From Escherichia phage dhabil: a stretch of DNA of 64,000 nucleotides. The notes beneath the pieces were generated by a model. It did not search any database and was not told the DNA's origin. It saw nothing but the letters and a program-made list of their open reading frames with translations. A program made the position numbers and the translations under genes. The DNA lies in sequence record MN850621.1; one strand, given 5' to 3'. Shown here in pieces: positions 3,316 through 56,367 of this stretch (positions within the stretch are counted from its first letter, which is position 1; every line of letters starts with the position of its first letter).

Positions 3316-4536
<1,221 letters not shown>

Positions 4537-4540
<4 letters not shown>

Positions 4541-5034
4541 ACACCGAGCTCCTTATAAAGTTCTTCACGGCAGGTTTTAAGGGTTTTACCGGATTCATAA
4601 GCAACACTTTCAGGAACATCGCCGAGAGTTACTGCGGATTGCATTTGACCATGACGTTTAGCCGCATATTCAAAACTTTTTACTAGCTCACGAATACGTT
4701 CTTTTTCTTCATGAAGTGATTGGTTTTCTTCATAGCATGCAGTAACATCTAAGATTGAATTCCACACATCAGAAGGAATAGGCTTGGATAATTTCAACAC
4801 TCTGCTCGGGAAATCATTCCATGGGGCGTAGTATTCAACTTCTGTAATAGCTTTGTCTTTACATTCTGAAATAAAGAATCGAGCTTTACCTTCCAAAGGT
4901 GTTTTACGGCAAGAACCAATTCGGGCCAGATTTTGGAAGAATTTGTCTTTACACTTCATGATATTATTAGCGTTCTCAACATACCATAATATTTTCATAG
5001 TCATTTCCTCAATTTTTATAATCCGTAGGAGCAT
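4537..5034 (-). CDS. Hypothetical protein (165 aa)
   Basis: ORF in operon orientation; no motif recognised. Confidence 0.45.
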
Positions 5035-5165
5035 TATACTCTGCTCCCAAGAGTTTGTAAACTACTTTCCAAAAATACCGTTCATACACATGCTGAACAC
5101 GATTCCAAAACAAAAGCATGCAAAACCAAATCGAACGATATCCCACCCGTCAGCACAAGCCTCGA

Positions 5166-5456
5166 TCATTTGCACTTCTCCTCTTTTAACCCGGAACGAT
5201 AATAACATAACATAGATTTCTGGTCTTGTACATATCTTTTTACGTCATTCAACCAAATACGATGTTCTTGTGAGTCTTCAAACGGCATACCGACCCAAGC
5301 CTTACCATCGATTACCTTAACCTGCCACTTAACGTTATGTTCGGCAATAGGTTGTGGCCATGAAGGGTGTAGTTGTTGCTTAGGCGCCACAGGAACATCC
5401 TGAGCACATCCAACTAGCAATCCAATAGATAACATTACAGCAGTCAATTTAATCAT
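5166..5456 (-). CDS. Putative outer-membrane spanin (lipoprotein)
   Basis: 96 aa; signal peptide with lipobox LLVGC; immediately downstream of and overlapping a TM plus coiled-coil ORF; matches the T4 pseT.2/pseT.3 spanin position. Confidence 0.55.
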   Translation of the reverse strand: MIKLTAVMLSIGLLVGCAQDVPVAPKQQLHPSWPQPIAEHNVKWQVKVIDGKAWVGMPFEDSQEHRIWLNDVKRYVQDQKSMLCYYRSGLKEEKCK

Positions 5457-5806
5457 TCTGTGATGCTCCTGAAGTCTTCTGTAAAGGAATCGAAGGACTT
5501 GTTGATTTGTTTTTCGACCAATCCTGGCTTACTTGCCACCACGTGCGCCTTCTTCGAATCTTTACGGAGCTTTTCATTTTCTACCTTAATTTTATCCAGT
5601 CTGGCATTCATTTCAGTAGTACGGAATTCAATATCTGAATATTGACCACGAAGGTCATCAACAGCTTCGGCGTTCTGTTTAGCTGTTTGCTGGGTTGTTT
5701 TCAGTTCTTCAGTTAATGTATCAATACGGCTTGATTGATACGAAATAAGACTGTAAGCACCTACTACAATGGCTCCAACTAAAAGGTAAATATTTAATTT
5801 AGACAT
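5453..5806 (-). CDS. Putative inner-membrane spanin
   Basis: 117 aa; N-terminal TM helix (IYLLVGAIVVGAYSLI) followed by a charged coiled-coil-like region; 4-nt overlap with the lipoprotein ORF. Confidence 0.55.
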   Translation of the reverse strand: MSKLNIYLLVGAIVVGAYSLISYQSSRIDTLTEELKTTQQTAKQNAEAVDDLRGQYSDIEFRTTEMNARLDKIKVENEKLRKDSKKAHVVASKPGLVEKQINKSFDSFTEDFRSITE

Positions 5807-14391: not shown

Positions 14392-14652
14392 TTATTTTTG
14401 AATTTTATCAAGCCATTTACCAAGCTTAATCATTTCTTTGGTAGCTTTTTCCATACTTCTGAATTTAACCAGTAAGGGTTGAGCATCAAAACCCATAACC
14501 AAGCTGGTTACAAGACTATGTTCACCTACAAGCCATAACGAATACGTTTGGACATCGAGCCCATAATTTCGGTCTTTATGAACTCGTACACCCATCACTT
14601 CAAATTTCTCACTGGCTTTTTCTACTGCATCCAGGAAATCATCTTTAGTCAT
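14392..14652 (-). CDS. Hypothetical protein (about 86 aa)
   Basis: ORF track 14392..14715; internal ATG at 14652 abuts the upstream stop. Confidence 0.45.
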   Translation of the reverse strand: MTKDDFLDAVEKASEKFEVMGVRVHKDRNYGLDVQTYSLWLVGEHSLVTSLVMGFDAQPLLVKFRSMEKATKEMIKLGKWLDKIQK

Positions 14653-14653
14653 G

Positions 14654-15037
14654 TTAGGCCTTAAAAGTTTTTTGCAAAAGTTTAATAATTTGGTCAACGT
14701 TCTGTTCGGTAACAATGCAATGTATTTGAGTTACGCCTGCCTTAGTAACAGGTTCGTCAACTTCATCTTGTTCGGCATATTCACGGAAGCAATAGAACTC
14801 ATCTTCATGCAATTCAAAATATTCCTCTAGGGTCCCGTCCGAACTAAAAATCTCACCATTCGCACATTTAATTTTAGTTACAAATTTATCCCCATCTGTG
14901 GTCATCATGTCCTTTACTTCAAACCAACCACCGTTTTCTTGGATAATATCAACCATATCATTATTATTGATAGGGCTGATATTGATAAAAGATTTGATAC
15001 GCTCAGGACGAAGTTCGTATTTTTTACCGATTTCCAT
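14654..15037 (-). CDS. Hypothetical protein (127 aa)
   Basis: First ORF after early-promoter cassette 15067..15095. Confidence 0.5.
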   Translation of the reverse strand: MEIGKKYELRPERIKSFINISPINNNDMVDIIQENGGWFEVKDMMTTDGDKFVTKIKCANGEIFSSDGTLEEYFELHEDEFYCFREYAEQDEVDEPVTKAGVTQIHCIVTEQNVDQIIKLLQKTFKA

Positions 15038-41575: not shown

Positions 41576-43393
41576 TTACGACATCCAGGCCTTACGGAGT
41601 TGAGGGTCGTTCCCGAGGAGCATTTCGAACTGTTCTTTCCAATCTTCAGGCAATTGAACTACATCAAATTTAGGGTCTTGAATCATTCGACGGTATTCAG
41701 CTTTCTCAAGAGAACCTAAACCTTTAATATATCGAATAGAATGTTTCGGTAGAGAGTCCTTGGCTTTGGTATAACTAGGAACATCATAAAACCATTCTTG
41801 TTCTTTACCGACCTGGGCAATAATCACCGGAGTTTTACAGAATCTCACTCGACCTTGTTCGAACAATTCAGGCCATTGACTAAAGAAGGCTAGCAATGAT
41901 GGATAAATCGAACCAGTACCATCCACATCAGCATCGGTCATAATGGCGATATTACGATAGTTGGTTTTATCTGCAGGTTCGCCAATAACCAATCCAGTGA
42001 TTGCACAGATATCAAATAGTTCCTTATTCTTCATGATATCTGTTGCTGTCATTCCCCAGGTATTCATAACCTTACCACGTAATGGATAACCACCTTGAAG
42101 GTCTTTATTACGGACTTCAATGAAAGGACCCATAGCGGAATCACCTTCAGTCAAGAACAGGGTTGTATCGGCATCTTTACCGTATAAGTTAGCTTTAATA
42201 TGCTTATGGACCTTGGCTTTAGAAGCTTTCTTAGCAGCTTTAGTTTCAGCAGCCTTTTCAGCTGCTAATTTACGTGCTAAAGCAGCTTCGACGATAGGCA
42301 TAATAAGCCCTTCGTTTTTAAGAATATACTGTGAGATTTTCTTTGCATCAATTTGAATATGATTACGAATTTCACCGAATGGTGACGTCAAACGCTCTTT
42401 AGTCTGGGAATCAAAACGCATATTACTCATATCACGAATGAACATTACCATCGTAAGGCATTCTTTAACACGAGCCTTTGTTACTTCAATTCCACGATAT
42501 TTCTTTTTAATACCAGGCAGAAGGTGCTCACAAATATCATCGAATACACATTCAACGTGGTGACCACCATTCTTAGTGTGGATATTGTTTACATAAGTCA
42601 GTTGACGGAAACCATCTGGAGATGTAGTAAATGCCATTGAGACATTATCGGTTTCTTGAATTACTACATCTTTACCAAATTGATTAGCATACTTTTTAAA
42701 GTTACCATCTACTTTTTTACCATTAAAAGTAAATTGGATACTAGGATAAATTACAGCTAGGGTTTTAAGACGATCTAAAGTAATATCCAGATAAATTTGG
42801 GTCAAACTATTTTCTTCGAAATGGTTAAAGTCTGGAGTGAATATAACCGAAGTGCCTTTATCTTTGGATTTCTTAGTAGTCCAACCTTTGTTTTCCATTC
42901 CGTTAGAACAGTTAACAGTAATCTCATTCTCACCATCAGAGGTGATGCCTGTGAACAAAACGGAGAAGATATTAGTTAAACTACTACCGACACCATTCAT
43001 GCCACCTGTCTTACGCTCTGCGTCATCTCCAAAGTTACCACCAGCCTTTGGAATAGTCCATGCAGCTACAGGACCTGGAATTTGTTCACCGTTTTGGTCA
43101 GTAACCATTGCTTGTGGAATACCACGGCCATTATCAGAAACTGAAACCTGATTATTCTTAATTCGGACATCAATTTTGTTTGCGAATTTAAAATTAGTAC
43201 GAATAGCTTCATCGACAGAGTTATCAATGATTTCATCAATTAATTTAACTAGCCCTGGAACATAGTTCACCTGTGTAAAATTACCGAACAGGAATCGACC
43301 ATGGGCTTCATTAGCACTAGAGCCAATATACATCCCACTACGTTTTTTGATATGTTCAATGTCGGACAGTACTTTAATTTCATTCTTAATCAT
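41576..43393 (-). CDS. 39: DNA topoisomerase II large subunit (GyrB-like ATPase plus Toprim), single unsplit gene
   Basis: 605 aa continuous ORF with GHKL ATPase N-terminus and Toprim region. Confidence 0.85.
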   Translation of the reverse strand: MIKNEIKVLSDIEHIKKRSGMYIGSSANEAHGRFLFGNFTQVNYVPGLVKLIDEIIDNSVDEAIRTNFKFANKIDVRIKNNQVSVSDNGRGIPQAMVTDQNGEQIPGPVAAWTIPKAGGNFGDDAERKTGGMNGVGSSLTNIFSVLFTGITSDGENEITVNCSNGMENKGWTTKKSKDKGTSVIFTPDFNHFEENSLTQIYLDITLDRLKTLAVIYPSIQFTFNGKKVDGNFKKYANQFGKDVVIQETDNVSMAFTTSPDGFRQLTYVNNIHTKNGGHHVECVFDDICEHLLPGIKKKYRGIEVTKARVKECLTMVMFIRDMSNMRFDSQTKERLTSPFGEIRNHIQIDAKKISQYILKNEGLIMPIVEAALARKLAAEKAAETKAAKKASKAKVHKHIKANLYGKDADTTLFLTEGDSAMGPFIEVRNKDLQGGYPLRGKVMNTWGMTATDIMKNKELFDICAITGLVIGEPADKTNYRNIAIMTDADVDGTGSIYPSLLAFFSQWPELFEQGRVRFCKTPVIIAQVGKEQEWFYDVPSYTKAKDSLPKHSIRYIKGLGSLEKAEYRRMIQDPKFDVVQLPEDWKEQFEMLLGNDPQLRKAWMS

Positions 43394-43441
43394 GTTATTT
43401 CCTCATGTAGTAGGAGAATATTATCCCATTTCACTTAAAGC

Positions 43442-43461
43442 ATAAAAGGGCCGAAGCCCTT
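43442..43461 (-). terminator. Intrinsic terminator after lipoprotein gene
   Basis: AAGGGC-CGAA-GCCCTT, followed in the minus-strand RNA by UUUU. Confidence 0.5.
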
Positions 43462-43720
43462 AATCAAATCGGATGGTCGACTTTTTAAAGAATAACCCAG
43501 AACAAACTGTTCCTTCAACCCTTTTACCTGTCGGACCTACAGCAATAAAGCCTGTACGTTGGAAATCATCTTCAGAACAGCCAAATAGGTTGTATCCTGT
43601 GATTTGGATTTGTTTGTAGCCATTTGCATCCAATACACGGGCGGCATTATCGGCATCAGTACAACCAACCAACGAAACTGCTAGTACCAGAGCTGCAATA
43701 GAACGATTAACGTATTTCAT
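43460..43720 (-). CDS. Predicted lipoprotein (86 aa)
   Basis: Signal peptide with lipobox LVGC then a small Cys-containing domain. Confidence 0.5.
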   Translation of the reverse strand: MKYVNRSIAALVLAVSLVGCTDADNAARVLDANGYKQIQITGYNLFGCSEDDFQRTGFIAVGPTGKRVEGTVCSGLFFKKSTIRFD

Positions 43721-43726
43721 AATTTC

Positions 43727-43903
43727 TCACTTAGTCAGCAGGTCGTAAAAACCGCCATTAACATGTTTAGGGGCCGAGACTAACCGAACAGCCAGCCGAT
43801 GGCAATCAGGACAAACATCGTTATCTCTTTCAGAGATTTTCTTGATTTTTTCGTATTCTTTTGCACAGTCTTCAGATTGGCATTTGTAATCATAAAGTGG
43901 CAT
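43727..43903 (-). CDS. FmdB-like zinc-ribbon protein (58 aa), not in ORF track
   Basis: MPLYDYKCQSEDCAKEYEKIKKISERDNDVCPDCHRLAVRL...; CxxC pairs. Confidence 0.4.
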   Translation of the reverse strand: MPLYDYKCQSEDCAKEYEKIKKISERDNDVCPDCHRLAVRLVSAPKHVNGGFYDLLTK

Positions 43904-55640: not shown

Positions 55641-56081
55641 TTAACCTCGGTTCATAAAGGCATTAAAAATCTGGTCGTCGATTGAATAAACCGGAGCTTC
55701 CAGAATTTTCAACAGACTGTTTTTGATATACTTGCTAGGGATATCCATATTAACGGCATCATTCAATTCGTTGTCCCGGAGGATATCTTTAAATTCAAAC
55801 CCTTCAAACTCAACCTTGTCAGGAATACCATCAGAGAAAAAATAAACCAATTGGTGCATTGTATTACATGAAAATAATTTAGACTTCACTGCAATAAGTT
55901 CTTCCCAGTGGTTTAATTCTCTATTAAGAAGTTTATGGGCAAATATAATCCTATCATCACTATCAACAAGAAAATAACCTAGGTACTGGTGGTCGTCGCT
56001 CCAAAACATCCTGTATGCTTGTGCATTTGGATTTTTACAACGAAGCTTTTTGATAACTAAATTTCTGTTAATCTTATTCAC
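55641..56081 (-). CDS. Hypothetical protein (146 aa)
   Basis: ORF in operon orientation. Confidence 0.45.
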   Translation of the reverse strand: MNKINRNLVIKKLRCKNPNAQAYRMFWSDDHQYLGYFLVDSDDRIIFAHKLLNRELNHWEELIAVKSKLFSCNTMHQLVYFFSDGIPDKVEFEGFEFKDILRDNELNDAVNMDIPSKYIKNSLLKILEAPVYSIDDQIFNAFMNRG

Positions 56082-56367
56082 CTGTCACCTCTTTAACAAT
56101 ATTTTTGTTATCGAAATTAGCATCACAGTACAGAACATAGTTATACTGCATAACACCACTAGAAGCCAATTGGTCAGATACTTCTTTAACCATATCAGGA
56201 CGGTCGCGTTTAGTGATGTTCATGATATCAGCGTAAATCTGATGTTCAACTGACTCTTGGTCTGCAGTCATAGACCATTCACAAAGGTCTTTATCCAATC
56301 CGGCAGTTACCGGAGCCGTGCCACATGATGCTACTGTAAGGATTGCTGCGATTAATAACTTTTTCAT
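56074..56367 (-). CDS. sp: Spackle periplasmic protein (superinfection exclusion)
   Basis: 97 aa; signal peptide then DKDLCEWSMTADQ and GVMQYNYVLYCD.NF.NKNI blocks matching T4 Sp (gene 61.3) as I recall it. Confidence 0.75.
   Translation of the reverse strand: MKKLLIAAILTVASCGTAPVTAGLDKDLCEWSMTADQESVEHQIYADIMNITKRDRPDMVKEVSDQLASSGVMQYNYVLYCDANFDNKNIVKEVTGE

Follow-up and report, generated by a model that had tools for sequence, protein, structure and literature searches.

The closest described relative of the gene analysed here is gene 39.1 of phage T4, whose product gp39.1 (UniProt Q01435; PHROG 902; VOG0388) is encoded between 39.2 and 39. In T4 the 39.1 RNA has been classed as early, and the protein has been detected by proteomics and classed as late-accumulating (PMC9697503 supplement). 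The gene was scored 'Not Fit' by CRISPRi-ART (PMC11879866 supplement). A search of the literature yielded no functional study of gp39.1, PHROG 902 or VOG0388.

Several described proteins resemble gp39.1 in their general design. Spackle (Sp) of T4 is likewise an early, small, periplasmic T-even protein; it has been described as soluble, it inhibits the gp5 tail lysozyme and it protects the infected cell. The two are not related: Spackle is a member of PHROG 1586 and has a gene of its own, whereas gp39.1 is predicted to be lipid-anchored and to adopt an alpha+beta fold. T5 Llp and lambdoid Cor, which block receptors, are both compact, small outer-membrane lipoproteins that phages produce before lysis and that sit on a short tether, a design which gp39.1 would share. 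In contrast to Llp and Cor, gp39.1 shows no homology to either, its gene is not linked to that of a receptor-binding protein, its sequence is invariant with receptor usage, and its carriers infect hosts that have no receptors in common. Finally, the lysozyme inhibitors MliC/PliC and Ivy are small periplasmic binders which occur in lipoprotein and soluble forms, and Ivy carries a disulfide-stapled loop with His and Asp. The disulfide-anchored C-S-x-D-D-x-x-H loop and the variable anchoring of gp39.1 recall these inhibitors in design only, as neither a sequence match nor a top-ranking fold match to MliC/PliC/Ivy was found.

At the RNA level, intercistronic hairpins of the T4 type consist of a GC stem closed by C(UUCG)G, a classic tetraloop, and are located right after the stop codon in the T-even early region, an arrangement also seen at 39.1. 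Middle promoters of T4 carry a MotA box of consensus (a/t)3TGCTTtA located 12+/-1 bp upstream of a -10 element TAtaaT, and the start site of the gene 39 promoter, P39, has been mapped at T4 5349 (PMC2988021).

Results

The 39.1 gene of Escherichia phage dhabil

We analysed a window of 64,000 nt, a continuous stretch of the genome of Escherichia phage dhabil (MN850621.1), in which an initial annotation had placed a small lipoprotein gene. The open reading frame described there exists on the minus strand (Table 1); it extends from ATG to TAA over 86 codons and its translation, MKYVNRSIAALVLAVSLVGC TDADNAARVLDANGYKQIQITGYNLFGCSEDDFQRTGFIAVGPTGKRVEGTVCSGLFFKKSTIRFD, is identical to the one quoted, including the two additional cysteines of the mature domain, which are C48 and C73. 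The n-region of the signal peptide contains the basic residues K2 and R6 and is followed by the h-region SIAALVLAVSLV, with a hydrophobic core of 12 residues (7-22 being the range expected behind a charged n-region). The lipobox LVGC, with its Cys at position 20, conforms to the pattern [LVI][ASTVI][GAS]C with Cys at 15-35 and satisfies a PS51257-like rule. Production as an 86-aa precursor with a predicted signal peptidase II-type signal peptide is strongly supported by these features. The mature part, C20-D86, comprises 67 residues with the lipidated Cys counted (~7.3 kDa, predicted pI 6.3).

Table 1. Coordinates of features around 39.1 in the analysed window
Feature	Position	Strand	Basis
Gene 39, topoisomerase II large subunit, 605 aa, unsplit, downstream of 39.1	41576..43393	-	PHROG 543, E 1.7e-281
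MotA-type middle promoter for gene 39 (putative): TTATGCTTTA (43445-43436), 12-nt spacer, TAATAT (43423-43418)	43418..43445	-	Consensus and T4 P39 alignment
C(UUCG)G hairpin AAGGGC-UUCG-GCCCUU, starting inside the stop codon, then UUAU	43442..43461	-	Folding, compensatory stem changes
gp39.1 ortholog CDS, lipoprotein precursor, 86 aa + stop	43460..43720	-	ORF translation, PHROG 902, dN/dS
Mature periplasmic domain T21-D86 (predicted helix 23-32 and four strands, C48-C73 pair)	43463..43660	-	
Cys20 codon TGT, predicted lipidation site and mature N-terminus	43661..43663	-	Conserved Cys column
Signal peptide, residues 1-19, MKYVNRSIAALVLAVSLVG, lipobox L-V-G before Cys20	43664..43720	-	Sequence reading, LPAM_1, lipobox columns
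39.2 ortholog, 58-aa FmdB-type zinc ribbon, 6 nt upstream of the 39.1 start	43727..43903	-	Pfam Zn_ribbon_8, E 2.3e-11

When a PROSITE-like lipobox rule was applied to ATG-started ORFs of >=50 aa, four were detected in the 64-kb window as compared with 0.3 per shuffled window. Apart from 39.1, they are the o-spanin gene at 5166-5456, the Spackle gene at 56074-56367 and an ORF on the plus strand at 14651-14830. The spanin lipoprotein, from which the present one had been set apart, is indeed a separate o-spanin (PHROG 812), encoded in an overlapping o-spanin/i-spanin pair (5166-5456 and 5453-5806, minus strand; PHROG 812 and 739). The Spackle ortholog, also on the minus strand, was identified through PHROG 1586 (E 1.5e-42), and its N-terminus, MKKLLIAAILTVASCG, fits the lipobox pattern as well (VASC, Cys15).

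The 86-aa protein has a 100% identical counterpart, dhaeg_255, in Escherichia phage dhaeg (Dhakavirus). The protein matches the profile of PHROG 902, labelled 'unknown function', over residues 1-85 (E 1.1e-34), and its mature domain shares 74-78% identity with gp39.1 of T4 and Tequatrovirus. The gene is found in the conserved order motB, cef, goF, 39.2, 39.1, 39, and the linkage of 39.2 and 39.1 is kept across Tevenvirinae, including Karamvirus, Jiaodavirus and Kanagawavirus. Judged by its sequence and place, it is the Dhakavirus ortholog of T4 gene 39.1; co-transcription with 39.2, goF and cef is strongly supported. The values of dN/dS among 39.1 orthologs, 0.05-0.15, indicate strong purifying selection. 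The lipoprotein gene is genuine and conserved among phages, and it has a catalogue entry as gp39.1 / PHROG 902. It is present in a single copy, as no paralog was found in the window, and a DNA-level search of 5,426 complete E. coli genomes returned no match.

Some variation in the surroundings of the gene was also observed. Gene 39 of the window is a single 605-aa ORF. In T4, by contrast, two products, gp39 and gp60, make up the topoisomerase II large subunit, the split being located around the mobA remnant. Karamvirus and Kanagawavirus have an extra 31-aa basic ORF between 39.2 and 39.1 (MGTRPRIKFMKSGESRIVKLHNGKTYKLVKK in EnA02), located at 309-404, 309-404 and 300-395 of three extracted loci. 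In EnA02 and KLB31 a basic ORF of ~70 aa overlaps the 39.1 stop codon, and in CC31 the next annotated gene after 39.1 encodes a Hoc-like head decoration protein.

Errors in the T4 reference sequence

Compared with resequenced T4 genomes, the T4 reference (AF158101.6 / NC_000866.4) carries ~14 clustered substitutions and indels across 39.2-39.1 (extracts 2321-2762 of AF158101.6 vs. 178-617 of T4T and MT984581), and none of the resequenced genomes examined (T4T HM137666, MT984581, KJ477684-6, OL964735 and OZ209023) shares these differences. The resequenced genomes encode an intact 58-aa gp39.2 and an 86-aa gp39.1 precursor beginning with MKYINRSIAALVLAVSLIGC, while the reference yields a 45-aa gp39.2 and a 65-aa gp39.1 devoid of both signal peptide and lipobox. 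The deviating stretch is identical to the records X06220 and M89919 from the 1980s-90s, so the differences are probably legacy Sanger errors. The apparent difference between T4 gp39.1 and the protein of the window (65 aa, no signal peptide) is thus accounted for by errors in the reference, and nothing material differs between the two. That T4 39.1 might be a pseudogene was considered and rejected, since the frameshift occurs only in the old Sanger-derived reference.

The reference also bears on the knockdown result. The CRISPRi-ART guides against 39.1 were placed at the false start (T4 5565-5605) and contain an erroneous extra base (PMC11879866 supplementary files 15 and 25). Because the guides lie on the erroneous stretch, the 'Not Fit' score is weak evidence and may reflect poor knockdown rather than dispensability.

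Distribution of the gp39.1 domain

Homologs were detected by tblastn in 1,064 phage records, and an exhaustive HMM search gathered 2,226 clusters at 50% identity with E <=1e-3, of which 1,036 had E <=1e-10. Across ~480 Tequatrovirus records, T2 and resequenced T4 included, the protein is 95-99% identical. The domain further occurs in phages of Klebsiella, Aeromonas, Vibrio, Burkholderia, Sinorhizobium, Stenotrophomonas, Sphingobium and Pseudomonas, hosts which span alpha-, beta- and gamma-proteobacteria, and on plasmids. The isolated phages that bear it are mostly large myoviruses.

Outside virulent myoviruses the gene was always found amid small early-type or accessory genes. One member is located in a 232-kb temperate-phage-like contig, between nin-like (YbcO) genes and HNH and terminase genes, the nin and terminase genes being of lambdoid type (4001-4249 of the extract), and another in a contig carrying an integrase (4001-4252 of the extract). 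A third is found on the phage-plasmid-like pLM21S1, beside ribonucleotide reductase and dut genes (4941-5198 of the extract), and a fourth, from which the lipobox has been lost, on pM7012, a conjugative megaplasmid, with NinX and DUF3085 genes close by (4902-5186 of the extract). Inspection of the neighbourhoods in metagenomic contigs, plasmids and distant phages revealed no partner gene that is conserved outside Tevenvirinae.

Domain searches were uniformly silent about function. Neither a Pfam nor an NCBIfam domain covered the mature part in the query and the 37 family members scanned, and a PHROG scan of the query returned phrog_902 only, apart from a weak signal-peptide match. Among the hundreds to thousands of relatives recovered by protein searches there was no functional name and no informative fused domain; all were named 'hypothetical protein' or 'lipoprotein' at the source. 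Homology to a known structural or lysis protein, which would have spoken against the initial annotation, was looked for and not found, the homologs being uncharacterised throughout. As to unusual architectures, one relative of 142 aa is a tandem duplication of the gp39.1 domain, and two others have C-terminal extensions, one of them proline-rich; an informative enzymatic fusion was not seen.

Anchoring and cysteine pairs

Column statistics were derived from 298 relatives aligned to the family profile, or from a first set of 213. The lipobox Cys is kept in 279 of the 298 (94%) and a canonical [..][GAS]C box in 186 of the 213, and Pfam LPAM_1 matches 13 of 37 family members. About 13 members have instead a hydrophobic N-terminal segment without Cys, which resembles an uncleaved anchor or possibly includes a signal peptidase I site, and two lack an obvious export signal; overall, ~6% of the family is without a lipid anchor. 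Residue +2 is Thr in the query and Thr or Ser in 191/213 sequences, and it is never Asp; residue +3 is Asp in the query and Asp or Asn in the family. Under the +2 rule of E. coli, lipoproteins with Asp at +2 are retained in the inner membrane. On this rule alone, therefore, sorting of gp39.1 to the outer membrane by the Lol pathway is predicted.

The cysteines of the mature domain behave as pairs. C48 and C73 are both present in 288 and both replaced in four of the 298 relatives, and where a sequence has just one of them, the protein is truncated or the Cys lies one position away. Residues C74 and C81 make up a second pair: 35 sequences have both, and none has only one. Disulfide partners are gained and lost in this coupled fashion, which fits folding in the oxidising periplasm. 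Retention of the lipobox Cys and co-variation of the cysteine pairs bear out the view of the initial annotation that the protein is a lipoprotein. Since the type of anchor varies while export is nearly invariant, periplasmic location, rather than the lipid as such, seems to matter. The product is very probably a periplasmic protein of the gp39.1 family, a family whose members are mostly lipid-anchored.

Predicted fold and conserved surface

An AlphaFold2 model built from a 37-sequence alignment reached a pLDDT of 77.7 overall and of 85-93 in the core. Following the signal helix (residues 5-18), the model contains a helix (23-32) and four antiparallel strands (36-43, 54-61, 67-74 and 82-85). 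Taken together with the cysteine statistics, a predicted periplasmic domain of 67 residues, made up of a helix and four strands and stapled by a C48-C73 disulfide, is strongly supported. With only 2-3 residues between the lipidated Cys and the first helix, the modelled domain would sit against the membrane.

The fold appears to be a generic helix-on-curved-sheet, as is common among protein-binding and inhibitor modules. A Foldseek search of the PDB gave nothing significant, a profile search of PDB sequences gave nothing, and a structure search of BFVD recovered family members only. With cystatin, PepSY and VirB8-like folds (including the colicin M immunity protein Cmi), gp39.1 shares 3-15% sequence identity and no profile match, which is too little to establish homology.

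Conservation is concentrated in the motifs C-S-x-D-D-x-x-H/R-T-G-F and G-T-V-C-S-G-x-x-F-K-x-S-T-I-R-F. Polar residues show the strongest conservation and are grouped in the C48-anchored loop and in the region of the C-terminal strand (K79, T82 and R84), and the invariant ones are common to proteins from hosts as different as Enterobacteria, Burkholderia, Sinorhizobium, Stenotrophomonas, Vibrio and Aeromonas. The sharing of these polar residues across distant hosts and plasmids implies that the periplasmic target is itself conserved.

The hairpin after the stop codon and the middle promoter of gene 39

The gene was initially annotated as ending in its own terminator with a CGAA tetraloop. A hairpin is present, but its loop is UUCG in the RNA transcribed from the minus strand, CGAA being merely the complement read on the plus strand. 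The stem-loop proper is located at 43461-43446, is directly followed by UUAUGCUUUA and has a folding energy of -9.3 kcal/mol. With a 6-bp stem, 4 GC pairs and the UUCG loop it is recognised by the rule of the terminator scan; it is followed by no more than 2-4 U in a row, and its folding z-score is -1.58. Terminator-like sites in the region number 3 vs. 3.5 expected, and by composition alone the hairpin is not statistically unusual.

The UUCG hairpin recurs, with compensatory changes in the stem, in Dhakavirus, Tequatrovirus, Jiaodavirus and phage 212: the stem is GGGC/GCCC in the window, GGCC/GGCC in phage 212, AGGCC/GGCCU in T4 and AUGACC/GGUCAU in Jiaodavirus Shinkou. It is absent in distant phages and in Karamvirus and Kanagawavirus, in the last two because 39.1 overlaps the next ORF there.

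Immediately downstream of the hairpin, the window contains an element that aligns with T4 P39 and agrees with the MotA consensus in both box and spacing. The mapped T4 start site falls exactly 7 nt after the T4 -10 element, and T4 39.1, too, is followed by a UUCG hairpin and then by a P39-type promoter. In the window, the putative promoter belongs to the downstream gene 39 and overlaps the U-run of the 39.1 hairpin; that run is short and at the same time supplies the A/T-rich 5' part of the MotA box. Of the terminator originally proposed, the conserved hairpin thus stands; given the short U-tract and the MotA-type promoter immediately downstream, termination itself is putative. Going by its sequence conservation, the hairpin is a genuine element which the early 39.1 message carries at its 3' end, bordering a middle promoter, and it is probably 3' end-forming, transcript-stabilising or a partial terminator.

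Discussion

Early expression, interchangeable anchors, a polar surface that is invariant across distant hosts and a fold typical of binding modules are, in our view, best explained if gp39.1 is an accessory lipoprotein of the Dhakavirus early region acting as a periplasmic binder or inhibitor. We put this explanation forward as a whole tentatively, as a possibility falling somewhat short of an even chance, and are slightly more reserved about the envelope-protecting function it includes. The protein would be lipidated at Cys20, and the Lol pathway would, given Thr at +2, deliver it to the inner leaflet of the outer membrane, where a tether of 2-3 residues would keep the domain close to the membrane. 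There it could bind or inhibit, stoichiometrically, a conserved envelope target, which may be a host periplasmic component or a peptidoglycan-acting enzyme, through a contact face made up of the loop C48-S-x-D-D-x-x-H/R-T56 together with K79, T82 and R84. As a result, the newly infected cell might be made refractory to secondary insults to its envelope, such as superinfection, lysis from without or premature autolysis, and this protection would not depend on masking of the phage's own receptor. At the RNA level, the hairpin may mark or stabilise the 3' end of the early transcript, with gene 39 restarting from its own MotA-dependent middle promoter.

Several observations weigh against a binder or inhibitor. 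No homolog has a known function, every name in the family being 'hypothetical protein' or 'lipoprotein', and outside Tevenvirinae no conserved partner gene accompanies 39.1. The phage already has Spackle (56074-56367), so that a further inhibitor of a gp5-type lysozyme would be redundant and is less likely. Sorting to the outer membrane follows from the +2 rule only. The CRISPRi-ART score of 'Not Fit' indicates no role in fitness in the laboratory, though the guides were based on the erroneous reference (PMC11879866).

A related but unlikely explanation is that gp39.1 serves strict superinfection exclusion alongside Imm and Spackle, by binding, in the periplasm, an incoming phage's tail tip, its virion-borne lysin or the proteins it ejects. 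Early expression is shared with imm and sp, a periplasmic domain on a lipid or transmembrane anchor suits a target arriving from outside, and carriers among isolated phages are mostly large myoviruses. The disulfide-anchored acidic loop, moreover, is reminiscent, by analogy, of the inhibitory loops of periplasmic lysozyme inhibitors. However, Spackle is already encoded in the window, and the presence of the family on a conjugative megaplasmid and in a temperate-phage-like contig is better accommodated by a target in the host.

Receptor masking, one of the two functions initially suggested for the lipoprotein, we find disfavoured and quite improbable. In the manner of T5 Llp or lambdoid Cor, the protein would bind the phage's own outer-membrane receptor from its periplasmic face and inactivate it, thereby blocking superinfection and shielding progeny from debris, and a small, early, disulfide-containing, predicted outer-membrane lipoprotein with a very short tether is indeed Llp-like in general design. 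T2 and T4 use different receptors, and still gp39.1 is nearly identical across Tequatroviruses that include both. The gene adjoins the topoisomerase gene and early genes, with no adhesin genes nearby, its domain is shared with phages of distant hosts and with plasmids, and the ~6% of members without a lipid anchor also speak against masking. Neither Pfam nor PHROG provided a match to the Llp, Cor, TraT or Bor families.

A part in lysis, in which gp39.1 would work from the periplasm to modulate lysis inhibition or the holin, endolysin or spanin, appears highly improbable. Small periplasmic or outer-membrane proteins commonly act in lysis, and the copy in the temperate-type contig lies between nin-like and terminase genes, a frequent site of lysis cassettes. 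Against this, the T4 RNA is of the early class, a long distance separates 39.1 from the spanin pair (5166-5806) and the remaining lysis genes, and the modelled product is a folded domain which, unlike o-spanins, is not proline-rich. The gene also fails to qualify as an o-spanin gene, as it has no adjacent i-spanin gene and a folded alpha+beta domain is predicted for its product. The neighbours of the temperate-contig copy were considered as a lysis cassette, and this was rejected because they match no lysis family.

That the ORF is spurious or a decaying remnant, as the truncated T4 annotation (65 aa without signal peptide) and the 'Not Fit' score could suggest, is already refuted by conservation and selection data, that is, by the intact 86-aa precursor in all resequenced T4 genomes checked, by dN/dS of 0.05-0.15, by ~2,200 clusters with co-varying cysteine pairs and by detection of the protein in T4 infection.

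The T4 reference misstates 39.1 and 39.2 and hides the lipoprotein nature of gp39.1, and at least one genome-wide knockdown library has a design already influenced by its errors. As an annotation the gene is ordinary; it is, at the same time, a good candidate for a new periplasmic phage-host interaction. Among bacterial viruses the T4-type phages have been studied best, yet they encode a conserved envelope protein to which no function has been assigned.

Taking gp39.1 as a periplasmic binder or inhibitor one step further, its domain might define a new and very widespread class of periplasmic inhibitors encoded by mobile elements of Proteobacteria, among them conjugative plasmids, phage-plasmids and both virulent and temperate phages. 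Such inhibitors would neutralise a universally conserved envelope enzyme or machine by means of the disulfide-stapled C-S-x-D-D-x-x-H loop. The target could be, for instance, an enzyme hydrolysing peptidoglycan or a factor in the assembly or tethering of the outer membrane. We regard this generalisation as rather doubtful. If true, such inhibitors would provide generic, receptor-independent immunity of the envelope while infection establishes, and identification of the target could reveal a new way in which mobile elements control the cell envelope.
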